DNA of 64,000 nucleotides from assembly GCA_038230035.1 (NCBI GenBank), contig JBBRNX010000009.1, positions 11,882 through 75,881 of the forward strand, given 5' to 3'. Below, piece after piece: positions 1 to 19,546 of the stretch; within the stretch, counting starts at the first letter, position 1; every line of letters starts with the position of its first letter. The position numbers and the translations under genes are program-made. This DNA is from Gaiellales bacterium (GTDB lineage Bacteria > Actinomycetota > Thermoleophilia > Gaiellales > Gaiellaceae). The notes under the pieces were generated by a model, which was not told where the DNA came from, did no database searches, and was given only the letters and a program-made list of their open reading frames with translations.

Positions 1-378
1 GCGCCCACCGAACCGCCAGGCGAACAATGTCGCCACAAAGCTCGTGCCTACCCACGTCAACTTCGTCAGCGCGTCGTAGATCCAGGTCACGAGCGTGTCG
101 AGCCCGCTGCTGATCCCCGTCACGACGCGGAAGAACAGGTTCGGGTGCGCCGCATTCGACTGATCCGAGAGCCAGATCTGGAAGCTGTCGAGATGGCCGG
201 TGAGCGAGTTCCACTCGAGCGCGGCCGGCCACGTGTATTTCCCCTTCGCCGCGTAGTAGCCGACGAGCATCCCCACCACGACGAGCGCAGACAGGACGGC
301 GCGGCTCCGCCACCACGGCCGGTGATCGATCACGACGGGCGCGGGTACGGCTCCGACGACTTCGTCGACGGTGGTCAT
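1..378 (-). CDS. ABC permease, ProW/OpuAB-like; only the 5' part lies in the window
   Basis: Hand translation from ATG 378: MTTVDEVVGAVPAPVVIDHRPWWRSRAVLSALVVVGMLVGYY...; hydrophobic, open to the window edge, starts 2 nt after the proV stop. Confidence 0.7.
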   Translation of the reverse strand, partial: MTTVDEVVGAVPAPVVIDHRPWWRSRAVLSALVVVGMLVGYYAAKGKYTWPAALEWNSLTGHLDSFQIWLSDQSNAAHPNLFFRVVTGISSGLDTLVTWIYDALTKLTWVGTSFVATLFAWRFGGR

Positions 379-380
379 GG

Positions 381-1454
381 TCAGTCCTCGCCCGCAATCG
401 CCTGCAGCACCGCGTCGCGATCGACGACGCCTACGATCCGTCCTTCTTCGACCGCGCAGACCGGCCGCTCGTTCGACGCGATCATCGGCACCGCGTTCTT
501 CACGGTGGTACGCACGTCCAACGTTGGGCCGCCTTCCTCTCCGGGGCGGGCAGGACGCATGATCCAGCGCAGCGTCAGCACGTGACTACGGGGAATGTCG
601 CGGACGAAATTCGCGACATACTCGTCGGCGGGCGAGCCGACGAGATCCTCCGGCGTGCCGAGTTGGACGATCGCGCCGTCGCGCATGATCGCGATCCGGT
701 CTCCCAGCCGAAGGGCTTCCGGCAGGTCATGCGTGATGAAGACCATCGTCTTGCCGGTCTCCTCCTGCAGGCGGCACACCTCGTCCTGCATGTCGCGCCG
801 GATCAGCGGGTCGAGTGCGCTGAACGGCTCGTCGTAGAGCATCACCTTCGGGTCGACGACGAACGCGCGCGCCACGCCGACGCGCTGCTGCATGCCGCCC
901 GAGAGTTGATCCGGGAACTGGTTGGCCGAGTCCTCGAGACCGACGAGCTTGAGCACCTCGGTGGCGCGCGCGAGGCGCTCCTCCTTCGCGACGCCTTGGA
1001 CCTCGAGCCCGAAGGCGACGTTGTCGACGACGCGCCTGTGCGCGAGCAGACCGAAGTGCTGGAAGACCATCGACACGGTGTGGCGCCGGAGCTGCCGCAG
1101 GTCGGTCGTGTTGGACGCAGTGACGTCCTGCCCGGCGATCTCGATGCGCCCGGCCGTCGGTTCGATCAGACGGATCAGCGTGCGCACAAGGGTCGACTTG
1201 CCCGAACCGGACAGACCCATGACGACGAACACCTCGCCCGGCCAGACGTCGAACGAGACGTCCCGCACGGCCGACACACAACCGGTCTTCGCGCGCAGCT
1301 CGGCGCGCGGCAGGTCGGCGTCAGGCGTGCCGAGAACACGGTCTGCATTCGGCCCGAAGATCTTCCAAATGCCCTCCGCGTGAATCAGCGGCGGACCGGT
1401 CCGGTCGACCCGGTCAGCGCGATCCAGTACCGCGGGCGCAGTCGCAGCAGTCAC
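381..1454 (-). CDS. proV: Glycine betaine/proline ABC transporter ATP-binding subunit
   Basis: Walker A GLSGSGKST, signature LSGGMQQRV, DEPFSALDPLIRRDMQDE typical of ProV/OpuAA. Confidence 0.9.
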   Translation of the reverse strand: MTAATAPAVLDRADRVDRTGPPLIHAEGIWKIFGPNADRVLGTPDADLPRAELRAKTGCVSAVRDVSFDVWPGEVFVVMGLSGSGKSTLVRTLIRLIEPTAGRIEIAGQDVTASNTTDLRQLRRHTVSMVFQHFGLLAHRRVVDNVAFGLEVQGVAKEERLARATEVLKLVGLEDSANQFPDQLSGGMQQRVGVARAFVVDPKVMLYDEPFSALDPLIRRDMQDEVCRLQEETGKTMVFITHDLPEALRLGDRIAIMRDGAIVQLGTPEDLVGSPADEYVANFVRDIPRSHVLTLRWIMRPARPGEEGGPTLDVRTTVKNAVPMIASNERPVCAVEEGRIVGVVDRDAVLQAIAGED

Positions 1455-1566
1455 GCAGCATTCCCCGGCGGCGGATTCAGCAGCACGAGCGCACGATCAT
1501 AGTCCGGTTCGCGTCGTTCGTCACGCGCGGAGGACACCTGTTTGACGCCCTCGCCGAGGACTCCTA

Positions 1567-1604
1567 GACTCATCATGTGGCCTAACCGTTTCACATGATG
1601 AGTC
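1567..1604. promoter_or_regulatory. 13-bp perfect inverted repeat, probable operator between divergent proV and iclR
   Basis: GACTCATCATGTG-N12-CACATGATGAGTC ends immediately before ATG 1605. Confidence 0.55.
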
Positions 1605-2402
1605 ATGAGTACAACTGATCACACCCAATCCGGCACCCCACCTGGAACGCAGGCGATCGATCGCGCGGCGCAGCTCCTCGTCCATGTGCTCGAGAGCGCG
1701 CTGCCACCTTCTGTTGGCGGATTGGCGATCGCTGCAGGCCTGCCGAAGAGCACGACCTCGCGCCTCGTGCGCGCTCTGGAACGCCAGGGGCTCGTCGAAC
1801 GCGACGGCGCCCGCGGGAGCGTTCTTCCCGGGCCCGTGCTGACCCGCTTCGCGCGCGGGACAGCGCGAGACGCAGATCTCGTTGCCGCCGCCGCCGACAC
1901 GCTCCGCCGCATTTCGGAAGAGTGCGGTGAGACGGTCAACCTCGCCGTTCCCGGCCGCCACGGGGTCGACCATCTCGCACAGCAGGACAGCCGGCACTTC
2001 ATCGGCGGCACGAACTGGGTCGGCCGCGCCGCCCCGCTCCATTGCACGGCGAACGGGAAGGTGCTGCTCGCTTTCGGGGCAGCAGAGCTCACGAACGGAC
2101 CGCTAGAGCGACTCACCCCGCAGACCGTCGTCGACCCCGGAACGCTGGCCGGCGAGCTCGCGACCGTGCGCAAGCGCGGCTACGCGACGACACTCGAGGA
2201 GCTCGAGCCCGGCCTCGTCGCGGTTGCCGCGCCTGTCTTCGACCCGGGAGGCGGCGACGCAATTGCCGCGCTCAGCATCTCCGGGCCTACGATTCGCCTC
2301 ACACCGGCCCGGTTGCACGAGCTCGGAGCGGTGCTGATCGACCACGCGGCCGGGCTCTCGGCACGGCTCGACCACCACGACGCGAAGCGAGGAGCCGCAT
2401 GA
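1605..2402 (+). CDS. IclR-family transcriptional regulator
   Basis: N-terminal QAIDRAAQLL..GLPKSTTSRLVRALERQGLV HTH; C-terminal CTANGKVLLA, RKRGYA, ELEPGLVAVAAPV. Confidence 0.92.
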   Translation: MSTTDHTQSGTPPGTQAIDRAAQLLVHVLESALPPSVGGLAIAAGLPKSTTSRLVRALERQGLVERDGARGSVLPGPVLTRFARGTARDADLVAAAADTLRRISEECGETVNLAVPGRHGVDHLAQQDSRHFIGGTNWVGRAAPLHCTANGKVLLAFGAAELTNGPLERLTPQTVVDPGTLAGELATVRKRGYATTLEELEPGLVAVAAPVFDPGGGDAIAALSISGPTIRLTPARLHELGAVLIDHAAGLSARLDHHDAKRGAA

Positions 2403-3067
2403 CGAACGAGGAGATCCTGCAAGGGCTGTTCGACGACACGCTCGTCGGGAACGCGCCGTCGGTGAAGGCGTTGACCGAGGAGGGCCTCGCGGCCGGTATG
2501 AACCCTGAGACCTTGCTCTACGACGCGTTGATCCCCTCGCTCGAGGAGGTCGGCGCCCGGTTCGAGCGCGGCGACTTCTTCGTCCCCGAGATGCTGATCG
2601 CCGCGCGGGCGATGCAGGGCGCACTCGACATCCTGCGCCCGCTGCTCGCCGAGACGGGCGCCAAGCCGATCGGCACCTTCGTCATGGGCACCGTCAAGGG
2701 CGACGTGCACGACATCGGCAAGAACCTCGTCAACATCATGCTCGAGGGAGCAGGCTTCACGGTCTACGACCTCGGAGTGAACGTGCCGCCGGAGCGCTTC
2801 GTCGAGCAGGTCGAGGAACACAAGCCCGACATCGTCGGCTTCTCGGCCTTCCTGACGACGACGATGCCGATGTTCAAGGCGAACATCAACGCGCTCGAAA
2901 AGGCCGGCCTGCGCGACAAGGTGATCGTGATGGTCGGCGGTGCGCCGGTGACGCAGGAGTACGCGGACGTTGTCGGCGCCGACGGCTATGCAGCGGACGC
3001 GTCGACGGCGGTGCGGCTGGCGAAGGACCTGATCCAGAAGGCGCGCGCGGCGGTCGCCGTCGGCTGA
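2399..3067 (+). CDS. Cobalamin-binding corrinoid protein (MttC/MtgC-like)
   Basis: B12 motif GDVHDIGKNLV..MLEGAGF, SAFLTTTM, VGGAP; 4-nt ATGA overlap with the iclR stop. Confidence 0.92.
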   Translation: MTNEEILQGLFDDTLVGNAPSVKALTEEGLAAGMNPETLLYDALIPSLEEVGARFERGDFFVPEMLIAARAMQGALDILRPLLAETGAKPIGTFVMGTVKGDVHDIGKNLVNIMLEGAGFTVYDLGVNVPPERFVEQVEEHKPDIVGFSAFLTTTMPMFKANINALEKAGLRDKVIVMVGGAPVTQEYADVVGADGYAADASTAVRLAKDLIQKARAAVAVG

Positions 3068-3426
3068 TGGGACTTCTGACCGGCATCGAGCGCATCACGA
3101 AGGGGCCGGTCTTCGGCTGCCACATGTGCGGGCAGTGCGTGCTCCACTCGACCGGCTTGACCTGCCCGATGAACTGCCCGAAGCAGCTCCGCAACGGCCC
3201 GTGCGGCGGCGTGCGCGCCGACGGCGGCTGCGAGGTGAAGCCCGAGATGCGCTGCGTCTGGCTGAAAGGATGGGAGCGCTCGCAGAAGCTGCCGTGGAAA
3301 GAGGAGTTCAACCAGCTCCGTCCCCCGGTCGACAATCGCCTTTGGGATACCTCGTCCTGGAAGAACTACATCACGAAGCGTGACCGTGAGACCCCGGACG
3401 GCTGGACTGGCGCTGGGGAGGCATAG
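3067..3426 (+). CDS. metV: MetV-like Cys-rich subunit (MTHFR C-terminal domain family)
   Basis: GCHMCGQC..TCPMNCPKQLRNGPCGG..GCEV..RCVW Cys pattern; directly upstream of metF. Confidence 0.8.
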   Translation: MGLLTGIERITKGPVFGCHMCGQCVLHSTGLTCPMNCPKQLRNGPCGGVRADGGCEVKPEMRCVWLKGWERSQKLPWKEEFNQLRPPVDNRLWDTSSWKNYITKRDRETPDGWTGAGEA

Positions 3427-4365
3427 GTGTCCCGCCTCGAGGAGCGACTGACCGCAGGTGAGTTCGTCGTCACGGCGGAGATGCCGACGATCGACGGCGG
3501 CGGCCTCGACGCAGTTGCCTTCCAGCTCGAGCCGATGGCGCCGTGCCTCGATGCCGCGAATGCGACCGACAACACGGCTGCACACGCCCACGCGTCGCCG
3601 CTCTCCGTCTCGATCGCGCTCCAGAAGCTGGGGATGGAGCCGATCATGCAGCTCGTCTGCCGCGACCGGAACCGGCTCGGCCTGGAGGCCGAGATCGTCG
3701 GCGCGGCACTGCACGGGATCGAGAACATCTGCTGCCTGACCGGGGACGACGTCTCCGCCGGCGACGAGCCCGAGTCGCGGCGCGTGTTCGACCTGGACAG
3801 CCCGCAGCTCCTCGCGGCGGCACGGGCGATTCGCGACGGCCGGTACCTCTCCGGGCGGGCGATCGAACCGGCTCCGCATCTCTTTCTCGGCGCGGTCGAG
3901 AACCCCGGTGCGCCACCGTTCGAGTACCGCGTCGAGCGCTCGCTGAAGAAGGCCGACGCCGGCGCGCAGTTCATGCAGCTACAGCTCTGCTTCGAGCGCG
4001 ACCATCTCGAACGGTTCATGACCGAGGCGGTGGCCGCCGGTCTCGCGAAGCGCGTCCACCTGATCCCGTCGATCTGCATCGTCCGTACCGCTTCAGCGCT
4101 CCGCTTCATCGACGACAAGGTGGCCGGCATCAACGTTCCGGCCGATCTCATCGCCCACGTCGAAGCTGCCGACGATCAGCTGGAAGCGTGCTTCGAGATC
4201 GCCTACGACCTCGCCCGGCACGCGCTCGGCCTGCCGGGAGTGGCGGGCCTGCACTTCATCAGCTTCCGCAAGGACGCCGGTATCGCCAAGCTGTGCGCCC
4301 GACTTGGGATTCCGCCACGCAGCGAAAGGGAGACGAGTGGATACCGTTCTGCGATCGCAGTCTAA
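3427..4365 (+). CDS. metF: Methylenetetrahydrofolate reductase
   Basis: EPIMQLVCRDRNR, ICCLTGDD, VFDLDSPQLL, KADAGAQFMQLQ motifs. Confidence 0.88.
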   Translation: MSRLEERLTAGEFVVTAEMPTIDGGGLDAVAFQLEPMAPCLDAANATDNTAAHAHASPLSVSIALQKLGMEPIMQLVCRDRNRLGLEAEIVGAALHGIENICCLTGDDVSAGDEPESRRVFDLDSPQLLAAARAIRDGRYLSGRAIEPAPHLFLGAVENPGAPPFEYRVERSLKKADAGAQFMQLQLCFERDHLERFMTEAVAAGLAKRVHLIPSICIVRTASALRFIDDKVAGINVPADLIAHVEAADDQLEACFEIAYDLARHALGLPGVAGLHFISFRKDAGIAKLCARLGIPPRSERETSGYRSAIAV

Positions 4366-5191
4366 GACCGTCACAATCGGCGCCGGCCAGCCGTTCTGCA
4401 TCATCGGCGAGCGCATCAACCCGACCGGCCGCAAGGCGTTCCAGGCGCAGCTGCAGAAGGGCGTCCTCTCGCAGATCGAGATCGACGTCGCCGAGCAGGT
4501 CGGTGGCGCCGACGTGCTCGACGTCAACGTGGGTGATCCGCTCGCCGACGAGGTCGGGCTGATGGGCCAAGCGATCCCGCTCGTCCAGGGTCTCACCGAT
4601 CTGCCTCTCTGCATCGACTCGTCCGTGATCGAGGCGCTCGAAGCCGGCCTCGCCGCGTACGAGGGCAAGGCGCTCGTCAACTCGGTCACGGGTGAGGATG
4701 AGCGGCTGGAGCTAATCCTGCCGATCGTCGCCCGGCATGGCGCCGCGGTGATCGGCCTGGCGAACGACGACGAGATCCGGATGGAGCCCAAGGATCGCGT
4801 CGCGATCGCGAAGAAGATCGTGTCGGCGGCGGGCGACTTCGGCATCCCGCCGGAGGACATCGTGATCGATCCGCTTGCGATGCCGATCGGCGCGGAGCCG
4901 CGCGCCGTCACGGCGTTCATCGCGACGCTGCATCTGCTGCGCGACGAGCTCGGCGTCAACACGACCTGTGGCGCCTCGAACACCTCGTTCGCGATGCCCG
5001 GTCGGCACGCGCTCGGCGCCACGTTTCTCGCCATCGCTCAGAGCCACGGCCTGACGAGCGCGATCATGGACGCCCGTACACCCCAGTGCGTCGACGCCGT
5101 CCGCGCGAGCGACCTCCTGCTCGGGCGCGACGAGTGGGGCGCGACGTGGATCAGGCGCTACCGCGAGGCGCAGGCGGCCGCATCGTCTTGA
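4337..5191 (+). CDS. Methyltetrahydrofolate:corrinoid methyltransferase (pterin-binding, AcsE/MtgA-like)
   Basis: IIGERINPTGRK, DVLDVNVG, PLCIDSS, LVNSVTGE, IVIDPL, GASNTSF; GTG start behind AAAGGGAG. Confidence 0.88.
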   Translation: MDTVLRSQSKTVTIGAGQPFCIIGERINPTGRKAFQAQLQKGVLSQIEIDVAEQVGGADVLDVNVGDPLADEVGLMGQAIPLVQGLTDLPLCIDSSVIEALEAGLAAYEGKALVNSVTGEDERLELILPIVARHGAAVIGLANDDEIRMEPKDRVAIAKKIVSAAGDFGIPPEDIVIDPLAMPIGAEPRAVTAFIATLHLLRDELGVNTTCGASNTSFAMPGRHALGATFLAIAQSHGLTSAIMDARTPQCVDAVRASDLLLGRDEWGATWIRRYREAQAAASS

Positions 5192-7095
5192 GCAGCGCTG
5201 CCGCACCCGAGGACGAGGCAACCGGGCAGGCGGGGCCGAGTCGCGTCCGGCTCCGCTTCGTCGAGGGAGTGGCCGAGGCGGCGAAGGAAACCGAGACGCG
5301 GGTGCCAGCGGGGACGACGCTCTTCGACGCGGCGAGCTGGAACGCGATCGCCATCGACTCGACCTGCGGCGGCCATGGCACCTGCAAGAAATGCAAGGTG
5401 CGGGTCATCAACGGCGGCGCCGCGATCTCCGAGCTGGATCCGCGTGCGTTCACCCCCGACGAGCTGCGCGACGGCTGGCGGCTCGCGTGCCGCGCGCTCG
5501 CGACGAACGACCTTGTCGTCCACGTACCGCCGCTCCAGACCCGGCCGAAAGCTGCGCTCGCCGGCGTCGGGCGTCACGTCATCCTCCGGCCGGCCGTGCA
5601 GAAGCGACATCTCGTTCTCGACGAGCCGTCGCTCGAGGATCAGGCGGGCGATCTCGAGCGCGTATTCGCGGCGATGGACGACCTCGAACTGCACGCGTCG
5701 CTCGACGTTCTGCGCGAGTTGCCAGGACTGCTGCGTCGCGCGAACTACGACGTGACGGCTGTGATCGTCGACGACGAGCTGATCGCGCTCGAGCCCGGTG
5801 ACACGACTGCCCGCGTGCATGCACTGGCGTTCGACCTCGGCACGACGACGGTGGTGGCGACGCTGCTCGATCTCTCCACCGGCCAGCCGCTTGCCGTACG
5901 CAGCATGTTGAACGCGCAGCACCGCTTCGGCGCCGATGTGATCGCGCGGATCTCCGCGACCATGATGGAGCCGGGCGCGCTCGGCGAGCTGCGGCGCCTT
6001 GCGCACGAGACGCTCGCGGAGCTGACGGCCGAGGTCTGTGCTGAGGCTGGCGTCGCACCGGAAGAGATCTACGAGATCGTGGTCGTCGGAAACGTGACGA
6101 TGATCTCGCTCGCGCTCGGGATCGATCCCGAACCGCTCGGAATGGCGCCGTTCATCGTCGCGACACGCCACCCGATTCCCGCCACCGCCTCAGACTTCGG
6201 TGTCGTCGTTCACCCGCGCGCGCCTGCCGTGACATTCCCCGCGATCGGCGCGTACGTCGGCCCGGACATCCTCGCCGGCATCGTCGCGACCGGCCTTGCA
6301 CGCGATAGGCGCGTGCGGCTGTTCGTCGATGTCGGCACAAACTGCGAGATCGTGCTCGGCTCCTCAGCCGAGGCGGTGGCGACGGCGGCGCCCGCGGGAC
6401 CGGCGTTCGAAGGCGCCACGATTCGCTGCGGCATGCGCGCCGCGGAGGGCGCAATCGAGGGCGTGAAGATCGCGGACGACGGCGTCGAGATCCAGGTGAT
6501 AGGCGACACCGACCCGGTCGGCATCTGCGGCTCTGGACTCGTCGACGTCGTCGCCGAACTGCTGCGCCTCGGCTTGCTCGCACCATCCGGGCTCATGCTC
6601 GGAGTCGAAGACGTCCGTGAGCAGATGCCCAGCTTGGCGGATCGCTTCGTTCGTGTGCCGAATGGAAAGGGCGGCGAGGAGCGTGTGTTCGTCCTGGCCT
6701 GGCGTGGAGACGATCCTGCGCTCGCCGTCTATCTCTCGCAGGTCGACGTCCGCCGGCTGCAAGAGGCGAAGGCGGCGATCGCAACCGGCTGGCGGATGCT
6801 CCTGCAGCGGCTCGGGATCGAAGAATCAGACGTCCAGCAGGTGCTCCTCGGCGGGTCCTTCGGCGCCTATCTCACCCCGGCGAGCGCCGTCCGTATCGGC
6901 CTCGTCCCGAAGCTGTCGGTGACGAGAATCGTCGCCGCCGGAAACGTCGCGGGAGAGGGTGCGAAGATCGCCGCGCTCTCGCTGCCCGAGCGCCACGCCG
7001 CGCTCGCGCTGCTCGACGAGGTCGAGTACGTCGAGGCGTCCGGCAACGCCGAATACAACGATCTCTTCCTCTCAGAATTGACGTTTCCGGCATGA
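5188..7095 (+). CDS. ATP-dependent corrinoid reductive activator (2Fe-2S + ASKHA; RACo/RamA/AcsV-like)
   Basis: [14 protein letters not shown] 2Fe-2S; [39 protein letters not shown]; TTG start overlaps the upstream TGA. Confidence 0.88.
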
Positions 7096-7700
7096 GCCGG
7101 GTCGCGATCATCGCCTGCGGCGTGCTGACGCTGCACCTCAACGAGATCGCGCGCCGCCGGGGCTGGGAGATCGACGTCCACCCGTTGCCGCCCGAGCTGC
7201 ACAACCGGCCGGAGAGGATCGCCGTCCGCGTGGAACGCGAGATCGATCGGCTCGCCGGGAGGTACGAACGGATAGCCGTCGCGTACGCCGATTGCGGGAC
7301 CTATGGTGCGTTGGACGAGGTTGTCGCGCGCCGCGGCGTCCGGCGACTGTCCGGCGACCACTGCTACGACGTCTTCGGCCGCGACGAGGTGCGCGAGGCG
7401 CTCGCCGAACAGCCCGGCACGTACTTCCTCACGGACTTCCTGGCCCGCAGTTTCGAGCGGACGATTCTGCGCTCGCTCGGGCTTGACCGCCATCCCGAGT
7501 TGCGGGACGCGTACTTCGGCAACTACACCCGCGTCGTCTGGCTCGCGCAGCGGCCGACACCCGTGCTGCGAGCCGCCGCCGAGCGTGCCGCCGCAGCACT
7601 CGGTCTCCCGCTCGAGGTGCGCGAGGTCGGCGATCCCGGCCTGGAACGCCAACTCGAACAACTCGTCAACAGTTCGTCCGCCCTCGAGGAGGTCGCATGA
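7092..7700 (+). CDS. DUF1638-family protein
   Basis: [37 protein letters not shown]; family usually adjacent to corrinoid methyltransferase genes. Confidence 0.8.
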
Positions 7701-9136
7701 TCGTCAACAAGATGCCGCGGTACGAGATCCTCTCCGAGGACGCGATGGCGGCTCTCGACCGGGGTTGGCGACGCATCGTCAGCGAGCTCGGGATCGAGTT
7801 CATCCTCCCCGAAGCGCTCGAATACTTCCGCGAGGCGGGCCAGACGATCGAGGGCCAGGCGGTGAAGCTCGACCCCGACTTCGTGCTGGAGCAGATCGCG
7901 AAGGCGCCGCGCAAGTTTGACCTCCAGGCGCGCAACCCCGAGCGGAACATCCACGTCGGCGGCCAGCACATGGCGTTTGCGTCGGTGTACGGCTGCCCGT
8001 TCGTGCGTAAGGGCGACGAGCGGCGCGAAGCGACGATGGACGATTTCGAGAACCTCGTCCGGCTGTCGCAGTCGTTCGATCAGCTCGACTCGCCCGGCGG
8101 CACGATCTGCGAGCCGAACGACCGCCCGCTCGACTCGCGCCACCTGGACATGGTCTTCGCGCTGCAGACGCTCTCGGACAAGCCCTACATGGGCTCGGTC
8201 ACCTCCGGCCCGAACGCCGCGGACACGATCCGCATGTCGGAGATCCTGTTCGGTGGCCGGGAGGCGATCGAGAAGACGCCTGCATCGATCTCGCTGATCA
8301 ACGTCAACTCGCCGCTGCGCTACGACGACCGGATGCTCGCCGCGCAACTCGAGTACAACCGCGCGAACCAAGCGGTGGTGATCACGCCGTTCATCCTGAT
8401 GGGAGCGATGTCGCCCGTGTCGATCCCGGCGGCGCTGACCCAGCAGATCGCCGAAGCGCTCGCCGGCATCGCCCTGTCACAACTTGTGCGTCCTGGCTGC
8501 CCGGTCGTGTTCGGCTCGTTCCTCTCGAACACCGACATGCAGTCAGGCTCACCGAGCTTCGGCACGCCAGAGTCCGCGATCGGGCTCCTCTGTACCGGCC
8601 AGATAGCGCGCCATTTCGGACTCCCGTGGCGCAGCGGGGGCGGACTCACAGCCAGCCAGACCGTCGATGCGCAGGCCGCCTACGAGGCGATGATGACGAT
8701 GCTGCCGACGTTCCTCGCCGGCGCGAACTTCGTCATGCATTCGGCCGGCTGGCTCGAGTCGGGGCTCGTGTCGTGCTTCGAGAAGTTCATCGTCGACGTC
8801 GAGATCCTGCGCATGCTGCAGGACGAGTTCAAGCCGCTCGAGGTGACCGACGAGACGATCGCCTTCTCGGCCCACGAGGAGGTCGGCCACGGCGGCCACT
8901 TCCTCGGCGCGACGCATACGCTGGAGCGCTTCCGCGACTGCTTCTACCGGCCGCTGCTCTCGTCGACCGAGAACTTCGAGCGCTGGAACCGCCTCGGGGC
9001 GCGCGACACAACCGTCCGCGCCGGCGAGATCTGGCGCAAGACGCTGGAGGAGTACGAGGAGCCGACGCTCGATTCGGTGATCCGCGAGGAGCTGGCGGAG
9101 TACGTGTCGACGCGGCGGACAGAGCTAGGCGACTAG
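7697..9136 (+). CDS. Trimethylamine methyltransferase (MttB) superfamily, pyrrolysine-free (MtgB-like quaternary amine methyltransferase)
   Basis: [72 protein letters not shown]; no in-frame TAG. Confidence 0.9.
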
Positions 9137-9172
9137 CTCGACGGCGACCGCGGCGCCGAGTACGGTCCGCGG

Positions 9173-10831
9173 ATGAAACGGCAGTGGTCAACGCTGGTCG
9201 TGCTCGCGGGCTCGCTGGTGTTTCTGGCGAGCCTCTACCTGCCGTGGCAGCAAGCGACGTGCAACACACAGAGCGGCAGCTCCAAAGGACCTGGTGATGT
9301 CGCGGGACTCCTCAACCTGTTCTCGTCGTCATGTCAGACGATCGACCCGCTTCCGTTCGGCGGAGGCTCGGCTGCCGCACTGACCGCGCTTGCCCTCGCG
9401 GCTCTCGCCGTGATCGCGCTCGTGCGGCCGCAACTCGAAGATCGCCTCCCGATCGGCACGAGCGCTCTTGCGATGGGTTACTTCGCAACCGCCCTGACGC
9501 AAACGACAGCCTCTTGGGCAACGCGATTTCAAGTCTTCGGCGAATTTCACACCGCGTCCGGCACATTTATCGGGGTCGCGGCGGCAGCGCTTGCCTTTCT
9601 ATCTGCTGCAGTCCCGCGGAGGCGTGAACTCTTCTGGGATCGTTCGGCGCTCAGTCTCGTGAGGCTGGGGCTCGTTGGGTGCTATCTCGCAACTCTTTTG
9701 CTGCCGTGGCATTCGTCTACGCGGAACGGGCATGCCGAGATCACGGTGCTCGGCATCGAGGGCCTTGCCGGCACCCTTGCCGCAGGTTGCGTGCTGGTCC
9801 TACCGCTCGTCTGGTGGAGAGCCGATGGACGCTCTCGGGTTGACGGGATTCCTCTAGCGGCGACAGCAGCACTGCTGACAGGGGCAGCCATCACGATCGG
9901 CATAGTCGGGCTGGGTCGCACCGTCGTGCCGTGGGTTGCCGCCGGGCTCGCTTTGGCCCTTCTTGCCTCAGCGGCCGCGGGTGGCCGTCCGGTGACACCG
10001 TGGCTTTCGTTTCGAACTGCGATCGGAGCGGCCTCGCTCTCGGCGTTCATCGTAGGCATGTTCCTGCCGTGGCAGCAGGCGTGCGGCACCGAGATCAACA
10101 AAGCATTGTCTCATCGCTGCATCTCGGAGAACGGCTGGACGACGGCGACGACCGGATCGACGGCTGCGGCGCTCGCAATCGCACTCTTCGTCGTCCTCTG
10201 GATTCCGGGACACCTGCACGTGTTGGCCGTCGAACTCGCCGCAGGATTCGGGCTGCTCGTGGCGACCGCCGGTTTCGGGCGAGAGAGCCTTAGAGGCCCT
10301 GGGGACTATCGGCTCGACGTTGCCTACGGATCGACGGTTGCCTTCGTCGGGGCGGCGGCGCTCGTCCTACTTGCGTTGGCGGGGGTCCGCCTTTCGCCGC
10401 TCGACCGGCTCCGGATCCTCGAGAGAGCCATCCCGATCGCCGCGGCCATTTCATACATCGGCGTGATCGTTGTGCCGTGGTGGGACATCCTCCCTGAGCG
10501 TGTTGAGTCGGCGCTCTACTTCCCACCGTTCTCGTGGCCAACGATGATCGCGGAAGCCCTGATCGGAGTTCACCTTCTGGGCTACTGGGTTCGACGCGCT
10601 GCCGATCCAGTAGCGAGAAGGGACTGGCTCGTGGCACTGCCGCTTTTCCTGCTCGCGCTTGCCGCGCTCGATGTGATCATGCAACGCGAAGCGGGGATCA
10701 CGTGGCGTGGCGGGATCGTCGTCGGCCTCTGTCTCCTGCTCGCGTTCTTCGGCTACGCCGAGCGGCGCGGTGGCCTGCGCAAGCTCCGGATCCCCGAGAT
10801 CCTGCGCGTGGATCGGATCAGCGAGCCGTGA
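9173..10831 (+). CDS. Polytopic membrane protein of unknown function with internal repeats
   Basis: 552-aa hydrophobic ORF; repeated LPWQQ/LPW/VPWW units; TACGGT -10 6 nt before ATG. Confidence 0.7.
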   Translation: MKRQWSTLVVLAGSLVFLASLYLPWQQATCNTQSGSSKGPGDVAGLLNLFSSSCQTIDPLPFGGGSAAALTALALAALAVIALVRPQLEDRLPIGTSALAMGYFATALTQTTASWATRFQVFGEFHTASGTFIGVAAAALAFLSAAVPRRRELFWDRSALSLVRLGLVGCYLATLLLPWHSSTRNGHAEITVLGIEGLAGTLAAGCVLVLPLVWWRADGRSRVDGIPLAATAALLTGAAITIGIVGLGRTVVPWVAAGLALALLASAAAGGRPVTPWLSFRTAIGAASLSAFIVGMFLPWQQACGTEINKALSHRCISENGWTTATTGSTAAALAIALFVVLWIPGHLHVLAVELAAGFGLLVATAGFGRESLRGPGDYRLDVAYGSTVAFVGAAALVLLALAGVRLSPLDRLRILERAIPIAAAISYIGVIVVPWWDILPERVESALYFPPFSWPTMIAEALIGVHLLGYWVRRAADPVARRDWLVALPLFLLALAALDVIMQREAGITWRGGIVVGLCLLLAFFGYAERRGGLRKLRIPEILRVDRISEP

Positions 10832-11249
10832 TGTAGTCGGTCAAGTACTTGATCTGGACGCTCTGTTGCGTCGAGGTGAACTTGACGAGGTCGCCGATCG
10901 AGATCATTCCGACCAGCGCGCCACCGTCGACCACCGGTACGTGGCGGATCCGGCGCTCGGTCATGAGCGCCATGCACTCGTCGATGCCGGTGTCGGGGGT
11001 AACGCAGATCACCGGAGCGGACATGATCTCGCGCACGGGCGTCCCCGCATCGTCACGTCCCTCGACAGCCGCCCGGCGCAGGTAGTCACGCTCCGTGACA
11101 ATGCCGGTTATCTCGTCGCCATCGGTGACGAGGAGCGATCCGACGTTGGCCCCGACCATCGCCTTGACAGCGTCTAGGACGGAGGCGTCGCCGCCGATCT
11201 GCAGAACCTCTCGCTGCTTCCCCTGCAGGATGTCGGCGACCGCGCTCAC
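10818..11249 (-). CDS. CBS-domain protein
   Basis: VGSLLV..GIVTERDY, RIRHVPVV..GMISIGDLVK; GTG 11249 preferred over TTG 11258. Confidence 0.9.
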   Translation of the reverse strand: MSAVADILQGKQREVLQIGGDASVLDAVKAMVGANVGSLLVTDGDEITGIVTERDYLRRAAVEGRDDAGTPVREIMSAPVICVTPDTGIDECMALMTERRIRHVPVVDGGALVGMISIGDLVKFTSTQQSVQIKYLTDYITAR

Positions 11250-11275
11250 TCGCGGCAAATGCTACATCGGCCGAG

Positions 11276-11737
11276 CTAGGCGGCGAAGGTGCCGCGGCCG
11301 CTGATCGTCGCGGCGTAGATCAGGCAGTTGCCGAGAATCGTGCGACGGTGATGCGTCAGCGTCCCGTCGAACGTGCCGCCGTTGAACGTCACGCTCACTC
11401 GGTAGGTCTGGTTCGTGCAGCGGCTGCCGCGGTTCACGACCGTGACGCTGCCTCCCGTCACGGCTCCGCCGAGCCTCACGCCGGTGCGGCCGAGAATCGA
11501 GAACGTTCCGCCGGTGACCGCGACCGTCGGACCGGTCGAGAGCGGCTCGTGGACGATATGGGTTCGCCAGACCGCCGGTAGCTGGCCACGTGCGACGCCG
11601 ACGAACGTCCCGCGAACCGAGCTGACCGGGATGATCTCGGTGCCGGTGAACGAGTCGGAGTACGTGAATGAAGCCGATGCCGTCGCCGCCAGGGGGAAGG
11701 CGACGAGCAGTACGACGGCGACGGCAAGCGACTTCAC
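11276..11737 (-). CDS. Hypothetical secreted beta-rich protein
   Basis: Signal peptide MKSLAVAVVLLVAFPLAATASA; TAGCGT -10 6 nt upstream of GTG. Confidence 0.7.
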   Translation of the reverse strand: MKSLAVAVVLLVAFPLAATASASFTYSDSFTGTEIIPVSSVRGTFVGVARGQLPAVWRTHIVHEPLSTGPTVAVTGGTFSILGRTGVRLGGAVTGGSVTVVNRGSRCTNQTYRVSVTFNGGTFDGTLTHHRRTILGNCLIYAATISGRGTFAA

Positions 11738-11795
11738 AGGGCCACGCTAATCCTGAGCTGTGAGCCCAGCGTTAGCGATCTGATTGGATTGCGGC

Positions 11796-14060
11796 ATGAC
11801 CGCCGTCGAGGAGCCACGCACAGCGCAGTTCGTCCGACCGGACGGCAAGGAGAAAGTCACCGGAGCGGGTCGCTACACCGCCGACCTCACGCTCACCGGC
11901 CAGCTCGTCGCGAAGTTCCGCTACGCCGACCACACCCACGCGCGCATCCTGCGCATCGACGCGACGAAAGCGCGCGCACTGCCAGGCGTGCTCGCAGTCC
12001 TCACCCACGAAGATGTCCCGGATGTCCTCTACGGCGGCATGGTCAAGGACCGGCGGCTGTTCGCGAAGGAGAAGGTGCGTTTCGAGGGGGACGTCGTCGC
12101 CGGCGTCGCCGCGACCACCGCCGAGATCGCCGAGCGCGCCGCTGCGCTGATCGAGATCGACTACGAGCCGCTGCCCGCGATCACCGACTTCGAAGCCGCA
12201 GAGCACAACAGCGCGCTGGTTCACGAGGACTGGGAGAGCTACGACGCCGACGATGTGCTCCTCCGCGCGGGTAACCGGATGGGCTACTCGACGATCGTCA
12301 AAGGCGACGCCGAAGCAGCCATGTCCGCGGCGGACGTCGTCGTCCAGAGCCGCTTCGTGACCGACCCCGTGCAGGGCGTCCCGATCGAGCCGCGCGCTGT
12401 CATCGCGCAGTGGCAGGGCGACAAGGTAACGGTCTGGACGTCGACGCAGGTTCCGTACGCAGCACGCGGCGGAATCGCGCACACGCTGCAGATCCCGGAA
12501 TCGAACGTGCGCGTGATCGTGCCTCTGCTCGGCGGCGGCTTCGGCGCGAAGTGCGACTTCCACTACGAAGGCCACATCGCGGCGCTCGCCAAAGCTGCCG
12601 GCCGTCCGGTGAAGCTCGTCTTCACGCGGCGCGAGGAGTTCTTCGCCGTCGGCCACCGCCGCGAAGGAATGGTGATCGAGCTCGAGACCGGCGCCCGCTC
12701 CGACGGCACGCTGCTCGCGCGGCGCGGCCGGCTCGTCCTCGACAGCGGCGCCTACTGCGGCGAGGGCGGCTTCTTCGCACAGATGGCCGCGATGCATGCG
12801 CTCGGCCCGTACAAGATCGAGACCGCGGACATCGAGTCCTCGCTCAACTACTCCACCAACCAACCGTCGTCGTCGATCCGCGCGCCCACGGCGCCGCAAG
12901 TGTGCTGGGCGCTCGAGCAGCACATGGACGAACTCGCCGAAGCGCTCGGGATGGATCCGGTCGATCTTCGCCGGCACACACTCGTCGAGGAAGGCTCGGT
13001 CACCGCGACCGGCCAGGTGCTGGAGCGCATCGCGATGAAGGAGACCCTCGAGAAAGCGGTCGAGCTGATCGGCTACGGGAAGGAGCTGCCCGACGACGAG
13101 GCGATTGGCATCGCGGTCGGCTGGTGGCCATGCTTCACGGCGAGCTCGGGCGCCTACGTGAAGCTGAACGGCGACGGCTCCGGGACGATCATCACCGGCG
13201 CGCAGGAGAACGGCACCGGCGCGGTGATGGCGATGCCCAAGTACGTCGCCGAGGAGCTCGGCATGCAGCCGGAGGACTTCTCGATGCTCTATCAGGACAC
13301 CGACGCCGCCCCGTCGGACATGGGCTCGTGCGGCTCGCAGACGACGTTCAACAGCGGGCGCGCGGTGATCGCAGCGGCCGTCGATCTGCGCGACCAGCTG
13401 CTGGATGCTGCGTCCGAGAAGCTGGAAGCGGCGCGCGACGACCTCGAGCTCGTGGGCGGCGCGGTTCGCGTGAAGGGCTCGCCGGAGAAATCGGTCACGA
13501 TCGCGGACCTCGCCGGCAGCGGGACGTTCCACGGTAAGGGCGCGGGCGTGATTCCCGACGGGCCGGAGGCGTCGCCGGCCGAGGGCTGCCTCGGACGTCT
13601 CGGACTCGAGTCGTTCCATGCACCGCAGCTGATCGCGCACGCAGCGCGGGTGCGGGTGGATCGCGCGACCGGCGTCGTCCGCGTACTCCAGATCGCTGCC
13701 GCGCACGACTGCGGGCGGATCCTGAACCGGATAGGAGCCGACGGCCAGGTCTACGGCGGCGTCGTGATGGGCATCGGTCAGGCGCTCTCCGAAGGAACGC
13801 AGCTCGACGAGGACGGCCGCCAACGCAACGCCCATCTCACCGACTACAAACTCGTTACCGCGTCGGACGCGCCGCAGATCGACGTCGCCTGGATCGAGAC
13901 GGACACGCCGAACGCCGGGCCGAAGGGCTCGAAGGGCGTCGGCGAGCCGCCCTGCGTACCGACAGCCGGGGCGATCGCGAATGCCGTGGCGAAGGTGATC
14001 GGGTCGCGGGTGCGCGCATTGCCGATGACGCCGGAACGGGTCTGGGAGGCTGGGTCATGA
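11796..14060 (+). CDS. Xanthine dehydrogenase-family molybdopterin-binding subunit
   Basis: KVTGAGRYTAD, HARILRID, GGGFGAK, GAQENGTG, GSCGSQTT, AHDCGRILN, GGVVMGIG, KGVGEPP. Confidence 0.92.
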   Translation: MTAVEEPRTAQFVRPDGKEKVTGAGRYTADLTLTGQLVAKFRYADHTHARILRIDATKARALPGVLAVLTHEDVPDVLYGGMVKDRRLFAKEKVRFEGDVVAGVAATTAEIAERAAALIEIDYEPLPAITDFEAAEHNSALVHEDWESYDADDVLLRAGNRMGYSTIVKGDAEAAMSAADVVVQSRFVTDPVQGVPIEPRAVIAQWQGDKVTVWTSTQVPYAARGGIAHTLQIPESNVRVIVPLLGGGFGAKCDFHYEGHIAALAKAAGRPVKLVFTRREEFFAVGHRREGMVIELETGARSDGTLLARRGRLVLDSGAYCGEGGFFAQMAAMHALGPYKIETADIESSLNYSTNQPSSSIRAPTAPQVCWALEQHMDELAEALGMDPVDLRRHTLVEEGSVTATGQVLERIAMKETLEKAVELIGYGKELPDDEAIGIAVGWWPCFTASSGAYVKLNGDGSGTIITGAQENGTGAVMAMPKYVAEELGMQPEDFSMLYQDTDAAPSDMGSCGSQTTFNSGRAVIAAAVDLRDQLLDAASEKLEAARDDLELVGGAVRVKGSPEKSVTIADLAGSGTFHGKGAGVIPDGPEASPAEGCLGRLGLESFHAPQLIAHAARVRVDRATGVVRVLQIAAAHDCGRILNRIGADGQVYGGVVMGIGQALSEGTQLDEDGRQRNAHLTDYKLVTASDAPQIDVAWIETDTPNAGPKGSKGVGEPPCVPTAGAIANAVAKVIGSRVRALPMTPERVWEAGS

Positions 14061-14910
14061 GCGTCGTCTCGTATGTGAGCGCCGCTTCGATCGACGACGC
14101 CCTCGCCGCACTGGCAGGCGGCGCGCGACCTGTCGCCGGCGGAACCGACCTCGTCGTCGGCGCACGCTCGGGCAAGTCGACGCTGCCCGGGAGCCTTGTT
14201 GCGATCCACCGTCTGGTGGAGTTGCGCGGCGTCACGGTGACCGCAGACGGACTTCGACTCGGCGCGCTCGCGAGCCACGAGGCGATCTGCGCGAACGCCG
14301 AGGTTCAGGCGCACTACTCCGCACTTGCGGACGCATGCGCGATCGTCGGCTCGCACGCGACGCGCGCGCAGGGAACGCTCGGCGGCAACCTGATGAACGC
14401 GTCACCTGCGATGGAGACGGGCGGGCCGCTGATCTGCCTCAGCGCCACGGCAACACTGCGATCGGCAACCGGCGAGCGGACGATCGACGTGGCCGACCTG
14501 TTCACTGGCCCCGGGAAGACGGTCGCCGAGCCGGGCGAGCTGCTGATCTCCGTCGACGTGCCGGCGCCTGCGGCTGGAAGCGGCAGCGCGTATCTGCGAC
14601 TCGAGTACCGGCGGCAGATGGAGATCGCCGTCGTCGGCGCGAGCGCGCTCGTCACGGTCGACGACGGCAAATTCACTGATGCACGGATCGCGATGACCGC
14701 GCTGTCCCCGACGATCCGCCGCGTGCCCGAGGCCGAGGCGGCTCTCGTCGGCAGCGACGGCGGCGCGGCGGCGATCGCGGCTGCCGCCGCGGCGGTCTCG
14801 GCGGCGTCGATGCCGATCTCGGACGTGCGCGGCTCGGCCGACTACCGGCGGGCGATGGCGGCCGTCATTGCGAGCCGCGCCATCGAGCATGCGCTTGCGA
14901 GGGCCAGGGC

Positions 14911-14914
<4 letters not shown>
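14057..14914 (+). CDS. XDH-family FAD-binding subunit (CoxM/CutM-like)
   Basis: PVAGGTDLVV, GTLGGNLMNASPA, DVRGSADYRR. Confidence 0.9.
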
Positions 14915-15373
<459 letters not shown>

Positions 15374-15375
<2 letters not shown>

Positions 15376-15412: not shown

Positions 15413-16477
15413 CTAGGCGACTGCCAGTTCGGCTTCCGTGATCGTCCCGTTCGAGCTCGCCGCGCGGACCGTCGCGATCGTCTCGATGATCCGGCCGGCG
15501 ATCCGGTACGGGTCGCCCTGCGAGTTGGGCCGGCGATCCTCGAGGTAGCCGCGGTACCCGTTCTCGACGAAGCTGTGCGGCACGCGCACCGACGCGCCAC
15601 GGTCGGCGACGCCGTAGTTGAAGGTGTCGATCGACTGCGTCTCGTGCAGGCCTGTCAGTCGCAGGTGGTTGTCCGGCCCGTAGACCGCGATGTGCTCCGC
15701 CTTGTTGTCGTCGAACGCCTCCATCAGCGCCTCGAAGTACTCCCGACCACCGATCTCGCGCATGTACTTCGTGGAGAAGTTCGCATGCATGCCTGAGCCG
15801 TTCCAGTCGACTTCGACGCCGAGCGGCTTGCAATGGAACTCAACGTCGACCTGGTAGCGCTCGCACAGCCGCAGGAGCAGATAGCGCGCAATCCAGACCT
15901 CGTCGGCGGCCCGCTTCGAGCCCTTGCCGAAGATCTGGAACTCCCACTGGCCTTTCGCGACCTCGGCGTTGACCCCCTGATGGCCGAGCCCTGCCTCGAG
16001 GCAAAGGTCGATGTGAGCGTCGACGATCTCGCGCGCGACGTCGCCCACGTTCTTGTAGCCGACGCCTGTGTAGTACTCGCCCTGCGGCGGCGGGAAGCCG
16101 CCACCCGCGGGAAAGCCGAGCGGTGCGCCGTCGCGATAGAGGAAATACTCCTGCTCGAACCCGAACCACGTGCCCGGGTCGTCTGCGATCCCGGCGCGGC
16201 TGTTGCTCGGATGCGGTGATCCGTCCGGGAGCATGACCTCGCACATCACCAGCGCCCCGTTCGAGCGCGCCGGATCCGGAAAGACGCTGACCGGCTTCAG
16301 GATGCAGTCGGAGTCGCTTCCGTCCGCCTGCCGGGTGGAGCTCCCGTCGAATCCCCAATGCGGGATCTGGTCGACGGTCGGGAAGCTCGCGAACTCGGCG
16401 ATCTTCGTCTTCGAACGGAGGTTCGGCGCGGGCTCGTAGCCGTCGAGCCAGATGTATTCGAGCTTCATCTTCGTCAT
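15413..16477 (-). CDS. glnII: Glutamine synthetase type II
   Basis: MTKMKLEYIWLDG, WGFDGSST, FEQEY, NAEVAKGQWEFQ, DWNGSGMHANFS, EDRRPNSQGDPY; about 354 aa; SD GGGAG before ATG 16477. Confidence 0.9.
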   Translation of the reverse strand: MTKMKLEYIWLDGYEPAPNLRSKTKIAEFASFPTVDQIPHWGFDGSSTRQADGSDSDCILKPVSVFPDPARSNGALVMCEVMLPDGSPHPSNSRAGIADDPGTWFGFEQEYFLYRDGAPLGFPAGGGFPPPQGEYYTGVGYKNVGDVAREIVDAHIDLCLEAGLGHQGVNAEVAKGQWEFQIFGKGSKRAADEVWIARYLLLRLCERYQVDVEFHCKPLGVEVDWNGSGMHANFSTKYMREIGGREYFEALMEAFDDNKAEHIAVYGPDNHLRLTGLHETQSIDTFNYGVADRGASVRVPHSFVENGYRGYLEDRRPNSQGDPYRIAGRIIETIATVRAASSNGTITEAELAVA

Positions 16478-16501
16478 CGGATCTCCCGGTTGTCGTGGAC
16501 C

Positions 16502-16535
16502 AATAAAAAAGCCCCAGGACTCGAAGTCCTGAGGC
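16502..16535 (-). terminator. Intrinsic terminator in the glnII 5' leader (attenuator)
   Basis: Minus strand GCCTCAGGAC-TTCGA-GTCCTGGGGC (10 bp, one G-U) followed by TTTTTTATT, upstream of the start codon. Confidence 0.8.
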
Positions 16536-16569
16536 GACATTGCCTCCAGCGCGGCGTTCGTTGCCGCGC
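16531..16569 (-). promoter_or_regulatory. ANTAR-like tandem hairpin element
   Basis: GCGCGGC-AACGAAC-GCCGCGC TG GAGGC-AATGTC-GCCTC; both loops have A1 and G4; hairpin 2 overlaps the terminator's 5' arm. Confidence 0.65.
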
Positions 16570-16660
16570 GCACGCCTACTTTAGACCAAGCGCGCCGACC
16601 GACGCAACCCTCAATCAGCTCGATGCGGGCAGAGGCGCCTGACGGGACACGCCTGCTGTG

Positions 16661-18711: not shown

Positions 18712-18724
18712 GGTAGGCGCGATG

Positions 18725-19546
18725 CTATCCCGCGAGTAACGCGACCCCCACGGCAACGACCACTGCGCCGGCCAGCCGGGCTCGGCCGACGTGCTCCTTC
18801 AGAAGCGGCGCGGCGAGGGCCGTCGCGATCACGATGCTCGTTTCACGCACCGCGGCGACCGACGCGGCCGACGCGCGCTCGAGCGCAGCCAGCACGAGCG
18901 CGTAGGCGCCGAACGATGCGAGGCCGGCGGCAATCGCGGGGAAACCGATCTCAGCGCGTAGCCGCGTCGACCCTCTGGCGATCAGCACGGCGCCCGCGTA
19001 GCCGATCGTCGCCGAGCCCATGCTCAGCTCGAGGTACGTGATTGGCGCCGCATACCGGATGCCATGCTTGTCGAGCAACGTGTACGCGGCGATCACCGCC
19101 GCGATCGCGAGCCCGAAGCGGACGCCGCCCGAGCCTGTGGGCCGCCGGAAGCCGCGAACCAAGATCACGCCCGCGGCGACGAGACACACGCCGACGACCT
19201 GTACGACCGACGTCGTCTGAGACAGCGCGGTCGCGCCGACGACCAGGACGAGCACCGGCGCGAGGCCACGCGCGAGTGGGTAGACGACCGATACCTCGGC
19301 GCGTCGATAGGCGGCCGTCAGCAGCGCGAAGTAGACGAGCTGGAGCACGGCTGTGACCGCAATGAAGGGCCACGCTCTGCTGTCCGCGCGCCACGTCACC
19401 GCGGTCACCGGTGCGAAGACGACGATCGCCGCGATGAGTGCGACTGCCGTTGCGCTCTCAATGTCTTTTGCACGCGCGAGGAGCAGGTTCCAGAAGGCGT
19501 GGAGCACGGCAGCCGCGAGCGCGAAGACGAGAGCGAGGAGCGGCAT
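18725..19546 (-). CDS. DMT/EamA-family transporter
   Basis: [28 protein letters not shown]; about 10 TM segments. Confidence 0.88.

Follow-up and report, generated by a model that had tools for sequence, protein, structure and literature searches.

A conserved operon of Thermoleophilia resembles the cobalamin-dependent, MtgBCD-type betaine demethylation systems of aerobic Proteobacteria

Does a complete cobalamin- and tetrahydrofolate (THF)-dependent demethylation module in an actinobacterium mark anaerobic one-carbon (C1) metabolism, or does it belong with the demethylases of aerobic bacteria? The question is raised by a stretch of 64,000 nt from contig JBBRNX010000009.1 of a Gaiellales bacterium, in the following called the window. 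Positions 1605-9136 of the window carry genes for an MttB-superfamily methyltransferase (MT1), a small corrinoid protein, a methyl-corrinoid:THF methyltransferase (MT2), a RACo-type activator, a DUF1638 protein and a MetV-MetF pair. The initial annotation had equated this module with the MtgB/MtgC/MtgA system of Desulfitobacterium and had taken it as a sign of facultatively anoxic C1 metabolism. The closest known match is instead the set of MtgB/C/D, RamA-like protein, DUF1638 protein and MetF2, not the Desulfitobacterium MtgBCA or the acetogen system. On the basis of this comparison, we consider that the operon is probably the Thermoleophilia version of the MtgBCD-type, cobalamin-dependent glycine betaine demethylase of aerobic Proteobacteria.

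Operon structure and conservation

The genes of the window were called from matches to Pfam and NCBIfam profiles (Table 1), and the domain scans covered about 60 open reading frames (ORFs) of the 64 kb. All eight genes of the operon are located on the + strand. At all seven junctions, which we read in the sequence, stop and start codons overlap or abut. The forms are, in order, ATGA, TGATG, TAG/GTG (abutting), a 29-nt overlap, TTGA, ATGA and ATGA. The first ATGA links the iclR gene to the gene for the corrinoid protein, and at the 29-nt overlap the GTG start of the MT2 gene is preceded by the Shine-Dalgarno sequence GGGAG. Three genes start downstream of the beginning of their longest ORF, namely those for the corrinoid protein (2399), MT2 (4337) and RACo (probably 5188). 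Since codons overlap or abut at every junction, the tightly coupled operon of the initial annotation is real, and 1605-9136 is one translationally coupled eight-gene operon. Every part that had been listed was found; the list had left out the IclR-family regulator, which is the first cistron. The G+C content is 64%-70% throughout the window, and mttB has the highest G+C content at third codon positions (GC3, 0.92) within the operon.

Table 1. Features of the operon and of its surroundings in the window
Feature	Position	Strand	Basis
N-terminal part of ABC permease gene downstream of proV, truncated by window edge	1-378	-	homology to genes after proV in relatives
ProV-family betaine/proline/choline ABC transporter ATPase, divergent from operon	381-1454	-	TIGR01186, 344.7 bits (cutoff 326.6); Pfam ABC_tran
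Promoter-like site for proV, GTGACG-17-TATGAT	1524-1496	-	sigma-70 consensus match only
Promoter-like site for operon, TTGACG-17-TAGACT	1542-1570	+	sigma-70 consensus match only
Candidate IclR operator, perfect 13-nt inverted repeat GACTCATCATGTG-N12-CACATGATGAGTC	1567-1604		inverted-repeat search
IclR-family regulator, first cistron	1605-2402	+	HTH_IclR + IclR_C
Corrinoid (cobalamin-binding) protein, MtgC-like, 222 aa	2399-3067	+	B12-binding_2 + B12-binding
MetV-like protein, short, 119 aa, 8 Cys	3067-3426	+	PF12225 DUF5981 ("MTHFR C-terminal"), E 1e-25
MetF-type methylenetetrahydrofolate reductase (MTHFR), divergent, MetV-associated	3427-4365	+	PF02219 MTHFR, E 4e-25
MT2, methyl-corrinoid:THF methyltransferase, pterin-binding (AcsE/MeTr/MetH-folate, MtgD-like)	4337-5191	+	Pterin_bind
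RACo-type ATP-dependent reductive activator of corrinoid proteins	probably 5188-7095 (TTG start inferred)	+	Fer2 + RACo_linker + Raco_middle + RACo_C_ter
DUF1638 protein, putative accessory to corrinoid reactivation	7092-7700	+	PF07796, E 5e-26
MT1, non-pyrrolysine MttB-superfamily methyltransferase, MtgB-like, 479 aa	7697-9136	+	PF06253, 639 bits
BetA choline dehydrogenase, 8 kb downstream of operon	17059-18756	-	TIGR01810, 826 bits (cutoff 732)

We fetched 80 related loci of Thermoleophilia, each from a different species-level genome. In all 80 the MttB gene adjoins the block IclR-corrinoid protein-(MetV-MetF)-MT2-RACo-DUF1638, and this arrangement is far beyond chance. The gene is collinear with the block in nine loci, as it is in the window, and divergent in the rest. 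No other part of the module is as conserved as MttB (75%-98% identity among the loci), and the iclR gene lies beside the corrinoid protein gene in 78 of the 80. MetV-MetF are absent from about 20 loci, all of which keep MT1. Orthologs of BetA (about 75% identity) were found at a distance of at most 10 kb from mttB in about 35 loci. The betA gene directly follows mttB in loci L012 and L017, and a BetB-like aldehyde dehydrogenase follows BetA in L054. Proteins with the domain order DAO-FAO_M-GCV_T, which are of the dimethylglycine/sarcosine dehydrogenase type, were present in 10 loci and abut the module in L003 and L023.

MT1 matched PF06253 over its full length (residues 2-478 on profile positions 24-500). 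Its ORF is uninterrupted, the pyrrolysine (X) of Methanosarcina barkeri MttB (7xcl) is aligned to Leu317, and the match to the pyrrolysine-containing MttB was weak (E about 1e-35). This bears out the view that the locus is a cobalamin/THF methyl-transfer module around a non-pyrrolysine MttB protein. The identity of MT1 is 45% to PDB 4yyc from Sinorhizobium meliloti and 41% to Desulfitobacterium hafniense MtgB (9yce/2qne).

The corrinoid protein has the DxHxxG motif as DVHDIG (His-on). Its top NCBIfam match was MtgC_2 with 214 bits, under the cutoff of 370, and its closest relatives in the PDB were 1y80 and MttC (7xcn_M). RACo aligned over its full length to the Carboxydothermus protein (3zyy, 324 bits); all four domains ([2Fe-2S] ferredoxin, linker, middle and C-terminal ASKHA ATPase) and the Cys motif are present. 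MT2 scored 285 bits against PRK07535 (cutoff 259), and its closest relatives in the PDB were MeTr/AcsE (1f6y, 137 bits) and the folate domains of MetH. D. hafniense MtgA (6SJ8) was not matched by this protein even at E ≤ 10. Judged by these matches, the MT2 is of the AcsE/MetH-folate type and not of the MtgA type, and the equation with MtgB/MtgC/MtgA fails at this point.

The gene for the MetV-like protein (DUF5981) abuts and precedes metF, as in MetVF-type (type II) reductases. The protein has about 13 kDa, about half the size of acetogen MetV, which has about 23-26 kDa, carries two [4Fe-4S] clusters and belongs to a ferredoxin-dependent enzyme; NAD(P)H is not used by the type II methylene-THF reductases of acetogens (PMC8760232). 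A search of the PDB with the MetV-like protein found no relative. The top NCBIfam match of MetF was the MTHFR half of PRK08645, and it matched PDB 3apt at E 1e-12. One of the loci that lack MetV-MetF (L028) encodes a protein of 834 aa in which two CCG domains are combined with a 4Fe-4S dicluster domain (HdrD/GlcF-like; 2601-5105, +). Its gene, preceded by a dimethylglycine-dehydrogenase-like gene, adjoins the module at the DUF1638 end, and the protein may be an alternative redox partner.

Substrate, methyl transfer and oxygen

The same combination of proteins works in aerobically grown bacteria. In Ruegeria pomeroyi DSS-3 grown aerobically, knockouts of mtgC and mtgD abolished growth on betaine and led to methionine auxotrophy, and two PF06253 proteins (MtgB1/2), a RamA-like protein, a DUF1638 protein and MetF2 were induced by betaine, choline and carnitine (Mausz et al., PNAS 2025, PMC12478193). 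These genes are clustered in S. meliloti and in many marine bacteria (PMC12478193). In the aerobe Phaeobacter inhibens, genes for a RamA-like and a DUF1638 protein were tied to the reactivation of B12, and the mutants were rescued by methionine (Price et al., PMC5764234).

A tblastn search with the MetV-like protein of the window retrieved homologs from Paracoccus, Sinorhizobium and Shinella, with identities reaching 62%, and more weakly matching ones from plasmids of Acinetobacter. When plasmids were searched for actinobacterial carriers, only Proteobacteria were found. In S. meliloti and on p1 of Paracoccus methylovorus, the MttB-family gene is divergent from genes for a corrinoid protein, DUF1638, MetV-like, MTHFR, methyl-THF:cobalamin methyltransferase and ASKHA proteins. 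The seven operon proteins other than IclR all have counterparts in these clusters with 33%-57% identity. The values are 45%-49% for the counterparts of MtgB, MtgC and MtgD, 48% for the corrinoid protein, and 56%-57% for MetV, whose counterparts are "MTHFR C-terminal domain" proteins. The MttB-family gene of the S. meliloti cluster (CP090106.1, 5424-6998) encodes a protein 100% identical to PDB 4yyc, an unannotated structural-genomics entry labelled "putative trimethylamine methyltransferase", and the cluster is therefore the probable physiological context of this structure.

The window thus shares with the aerobic MtgBCD systems of the R. pomeroyi/S. meliloti type a separate PF06253 MT1, a corrinoid protein with the DxHxxG motif, a pterin-binding MT2 with adjoining MetV-like and MetF genes, and a RamA-like/RACo activase together with DUF1638. 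The MT1 gene and the corrinoid operon are either divergent or collinear, the residues W352 and G356 are common to the MT1 proteins, and there is an association with genes of choline/betaine catabolism. The systems also differ. The window belongs to the Actinomycetota, class Thermoleophilia, and not to the Proteobacteria. Its DUF1638 gene stands after the RACo gene and before the MT1 gene, whereas in the proteobacterial clusters it directly follows the corrinoid protein gene. The first gene of the operon encodes an IclR protein with its own conserved candidate operator, MetV has 119 aa compared to about 195 aa, and there is no MtgE near the operon.

The D. hafniense MtgB/MtgC/MtgA proteins form a glycine betaine:THF methyltransferase system (Ticak et al. 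2014; for MtgA, PMC7154762). This system and the window have in common the relay MT1-corrinoid protein-MT2, a non-pyrrolysine MT1 of the MttB family, THF as methyl acceptor and the MT1 residues Y97, R312 and H348. The MT2 belongs to another sequence family, F356 is Gly in the window protein, and D. hafniense is a strict anaerobe. The Eubacterium limosum proteins MtpB, MtcB, MtyB and MthB, which share one corrinoid protein, belong to the MttB superfamily as well, with R312 conserved and H348 often so, and they follow the same logic of ATP-dependent reductive activation. They act on proline betaine, carnitine, gamma-butyrobetaine and phosphocholine and feed acetogenesis, and they lack the conserved aromatic pair of MtgB, of which the window MT1 retains Y97.

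The chloromethane (cmu) pathway of aerobic Methylobacterium extorquens CM4 comprises CmuA and CmuB with MetF2, FolD and PurU. It is a further case of an aerobe that transfers a methyl group via a corrinoid to THF and oxidizes methyl-THF by a dedicated MetF paralog. CmuA differs in that it fuses MT1 and the corrinoid domain and is unrelated to MttB, and the substrate is a methyl halide.

If the operon functions like the aerobic MtgBCD systems, betaine would either enter through the neighboring ABC system of the ProV type or be formed from choline by BetA. MT1 would bind a quaternary amine with a carboxylate, most likely glycine betaine, and transfer one N-methyl group to the Co(I) of the small corrinoid protein, with dimethylglycine as product. 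The pterin-binding MT2 would pass the methyl group from the corrinoid to THF, and the MetV-MetF pair would convert methyl-THF to methylene-THF for C1 oxidation or assimilation. Corrinoid that has fallen to Co(II), as would readily happen in oxic cells, would be reduced again by the [2Fe-2S]/ASKHA protein RACo with ATP, together with DUF1638. The IclR protein would act on the operon through a palindromic operator that overlaps its promoter. Domains of carbon monoxide dehydrogenase/acetyl-CoA synthase (CODH/ACS), corrinoid iron-sulfur protein (CoFeSP), formyl-THF synthetase and terminal oxidases were found in none of the scanned ORFs. The statement of the initial annotation that the window lacks CODH/ACS therefore stands, and the methyl groups probably go to methyl-THF and then to methylene-THF. 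Searches of the window for folD, fhs, purU, gbcAB, metH, metE, mtgE and terminal oxidase genes also found none.

Which substrate MT1 uses is suggested by its active-site residues. In a 2026 study of MtgB, Y97 and F356 form a cation-pi cage, and R312 and H348 are ligands of the carboxylate; in characterized members of the family that act on other substrates, R312 and in many cases H348 are retained, and the aromatic pair is not (PMC13080624). MT1 has Y98 (equivalent to Y97 of MtgB), R312 and H348, and all three are present in the 120 closest homologs. Because of these conserved residues, the substrate very probably has both a carboxylate group and a quaternary nitrogen. Together with the genes for ProV, BetA, BetB-like and dimethylglycine-dehydrogenase-like proteins in the neighborhood, this makes glycine betaine the likely substrate, and the module most plausibly acts on a quaternary amine such as this.

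Several observations weigh against this reading. F356 of MtgB is replaced by Gly in MT1, in 4yyc and in all 120 homologs, so that the Y97/F356 pair is incomplete and MT1 departs from strict MtgB-type membership in one defining residue. MtyB and MtcB differ in their substrate preference although they are 53% identical; therefore, the identities of 41%-45% seen here cannot fix the substrate of MT1. In R. pomeroyi, the support for MtgB itself came from proteomics only (PMC12478193). Genes for the further conversion of dimethylglycine or sarcosine were not found in the window. Finally, the window is of sediment-metagenome origin and its 64 kb contain no terminal oxidase or other oxygen marker.

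The first two points bear on whether the same machinery uses another methyl donor, such as proline betaine, carnitine, gamma-butyrobetaine or a methylated sulfonium compound. In addition to the Gly at 356, MT1, its 120 homologs and 4yyc have an invariant Trp at position 352, where MtgB has Ile. R312 and H348 alone do not single out glycine betaine, as family members with other substrates show, ProV-family transporters also carry proline betaine and choline, and there is a gene for carnitine dehydrogenase in the vicinity of the Paracoccus cluster. We nevertheless regard another donor as unlikely. The equivalent of Y97 is invariant among the closest homologs, the recurrent BetA, BetB-like and dimethylglycine-dehydrogenase-like neighbors point to betaine as the node, and Mausz et al. 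assigned the S. meliloti cluster protein, in which the W352/G356 pattern is also found, to betaine demethylation (PMC12478193).

The chances are slimmer still that the corrinoid protein, MT2, RACo and DUF1638 serve also or mainly as a split cobalamin-dependent methionine synthase, with MetVF working in the reductive direction and MtgE encoded elsewhere. The methionine auxotrophy of the R. pomeroyi mtgC and mtgD mutants and the rescue of the P. inhibens mutants by methionine speak for such a role, as the parts in the window are homologous to those of Ruegeria and Phaeobacter. It is opposed by the lack of a homocysteine S-methyltransferase domain in any scanned ORF of the window and by the retention of MT1 in the loci without MetVF. 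The operon is centered on MT1 and lies beside a compatible-solute transporter with a dedicated regulator, which fits catabolism.

The relation to oxygen bears on the remaining alternative, an oxygen-independent, acetogen- or Desulfitobacterium-style route that runs in anoxic phases. For MT2, RACo and the corrinoid protein, the nearest relatives with a solved structure are from anaerobes (Moorella, Carboxydothermus and Methanosarcina), MetVF is known best from acetogens, and the window comes from sediment. One sediment metagenome run contained 96% of the sampled operon words, and more distant matches came from soil, rhizosphere and freshwater-sediment runs. The host had been called a probable aerobic soil actinobacterium. 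It belongs to a Gaiellales-like lineage of the Thermoleophilia, "soil" is inaccurate for the window in view of the sediment match, and, since the window has no oxygen marker, "aerobic" follows from taxonomy alone. The nearest MttB proteins and loci were all from metagenome-assembled genomes (MAGs) of Thermoleophilia (Gaiellales, Gaiellaceae, Solirubrobacterales, Thermoleophilaceae and Conexibacteraceae). At 97%-98% identity, the MttB proteins of a Gaiellales MAG and an "Actinomycetes" MAG were closest to that of the window. Cultured Gaiellales are aerobic chemoheterotrophs (PMC8248818). In metatranscriptomes of soil, root and rhizosphere, 225-416 contigs per run matched mttB at an identity of at least 85%; these contigs are from relatives and may include DNA carry-over. 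They suggest that the mttB of the clade is transcribed in these habitats.

An anoxic route is improbable, since the gene set is functional in aerobically grown R. pomeroyi and P. inhibens (PMC12478193, PMC5764234), the seven-gene cluster with MetV is the same in the aerobic, obligately respiratory soil bacteria S. meliloti and P. methylovorus, MetV-like genes also occur on Acinetobacter plasmids, the MT2 is not of the MtgA type, CODH/ACS and CoFeSP are missing from the window, the BetA and dimethylglycine-dehydrogenase-like neighbors are flavoenzymes linked to the respiratory chain, and transcripts of the clade occur in soil and roots. The corrinoid is frequently oxidized to Co(II) in oxygen-respiring bacteria, and the activase is therefore more necessary there, not less. 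We concluded that neither a Co(I) reactivator nor MetVF is a sign of anoxic metabolism, and the inference of facultatively anoxic C1 metabolism had to be given up.

Divergent spacer and neighboring genes

The operon and proV are separated by a divergent spacer of 150 bp. It contains the only two sigma-70-like matches within 1400-11300, where shuffled sequence gave a mean of 0.5. The inverted repeat at 1567-1604 shares bases with the -10 hexamer predicted for the operon promoter, and its last base directly precedes the ATG of iclR. A related palindrome, GTGGAAC-N4-GTTCCA(C/A), stands where iclR begins in 72 of 79 related loci, and there were only 80 matches to it across the 1.44 Mb of the loci (up to 2 mismatches in both cases). 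The broader consensus is GTGGAAC-N4-GTTCCAC. The exact palindrome of the window occurs among the relatives in L013 only; the window and its nearest relative, L002, have a shifted and extended version, of which the L002 form is intermediate. From its conservation and position, the palindrome is a strong candidate for the operator of the IclR protein. A scan of the window with Rfam found neither a cobalamin riboswitch nor any other RNA family, and regulation of the operon is therefore not riboswitch-based.

The truncated product of 1-378 gave no Pfam match of its own. It is 84% identical to the product of the gene after proV in L002 and 41% identical to the N-terminus of a protein of 663 aa that is encoded after proV in L023 and matches BPD_transp_1 twice.

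Downstream of the operon, 37 nt past mttB, starts a very hydrophobic ORF of 552 aa (9173-10831, +) with a GC3 of 0.73, lower than that of its neighbors. It had no match in Pfam or NCBIfam and no homolog in any of the 80 related loci; in L001, a CBS gene is found in its place about 1 kb after mttB. The ORF may encode a membrane protein specific to the lineage, or it may be an insertion. Three genes at 11784-15375 (+) encode the large, FAD and 2Fe-2S subunits of a molybdenum hydroxylase of the xanthine dehydrogenase/aerobic CODH family, which is kept beside the module in L001 (84%-92% identity) and L017 (63%-77%). An assignment as aerobic CO dehydrogenase was rejected because the large subunit scored far below the CODH cutoffs and has neither AYxCSFR nor AYRGAGR. 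All specific NCBIfam models were far below cutoff, and we filed the protein as a xanthine-dehydrogenase-family enzyme. Between these genes and betA, a homolog of the eukaryote-type glutamine synthetase GlnII is encoded (15413-16573, -; 373 bits, GlnII cutoff 500). Instead of being a genuine glutamine synthetase, it could act as a gamma-glutamyl-amine ligase.

The second cobalamin-dependent enzyme in the window is a ribonucleotide reductase of the B12-dependent class II that has a TSCPD domain (35682-38468, +). The organism thus relies on B12 beyond the operon. Four paralogous aldo/keto reductases are encoded within 15 kb (43421-44443, 48408-49436, 56106-57059 on the - strand and 57106-58080 on the + strand). 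Among them are genes for a protein with a glutathione-dependent formaldehyde-activating (GFA) domain (44495-44908) and for a formamidase/acetamidase (47480-48421). The other scanned ORFs encode transporters, housekeeping proteins and regulators.

Implications for the Thermoleophilia

Cobalamin-dependent betaine demethylation in aerobes was recognized only in 2025, and in marine Proteobacteria only. Since the same gene set is present in aerobes, the novelty that had been claimed for the operon is largely gone; no new mechanism is revealed, and the supposed link to anaerobic C1 metabolism is removed. The conserved candidate operator of IclR and the F356G/I352W pattern of MT1 are small, testable additions.

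The module, including MetV-MetF and DUF1638, is a near-constant feature of soil and sediment Thermoleophilia, which are among the commonest Actinomycetota of these habitats. If our reading of the operon is right, the range of a known pathway now includes an actinobacterial class that is abundant and poorly cultured, and a demand for B12 in this class is indicated. A wider proposal can be made tentatively, and we hold it to be possible rather than probable: Thermoleophilia may demethylate glycine betaine mainly by the B12 route and under oxic conditions, with an MtgB variant in which Trp352 replaces Phe356 in the cage and with a minimal MetV-MetF, its MetV of 13 kDa, that delivers electrons to a high-potential acceptor. 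If this were true, the class would be a large unrecognized sink for betaine and cobalamin in soil, and it would offer a tractable case for the question of the redox partner of MetVF.

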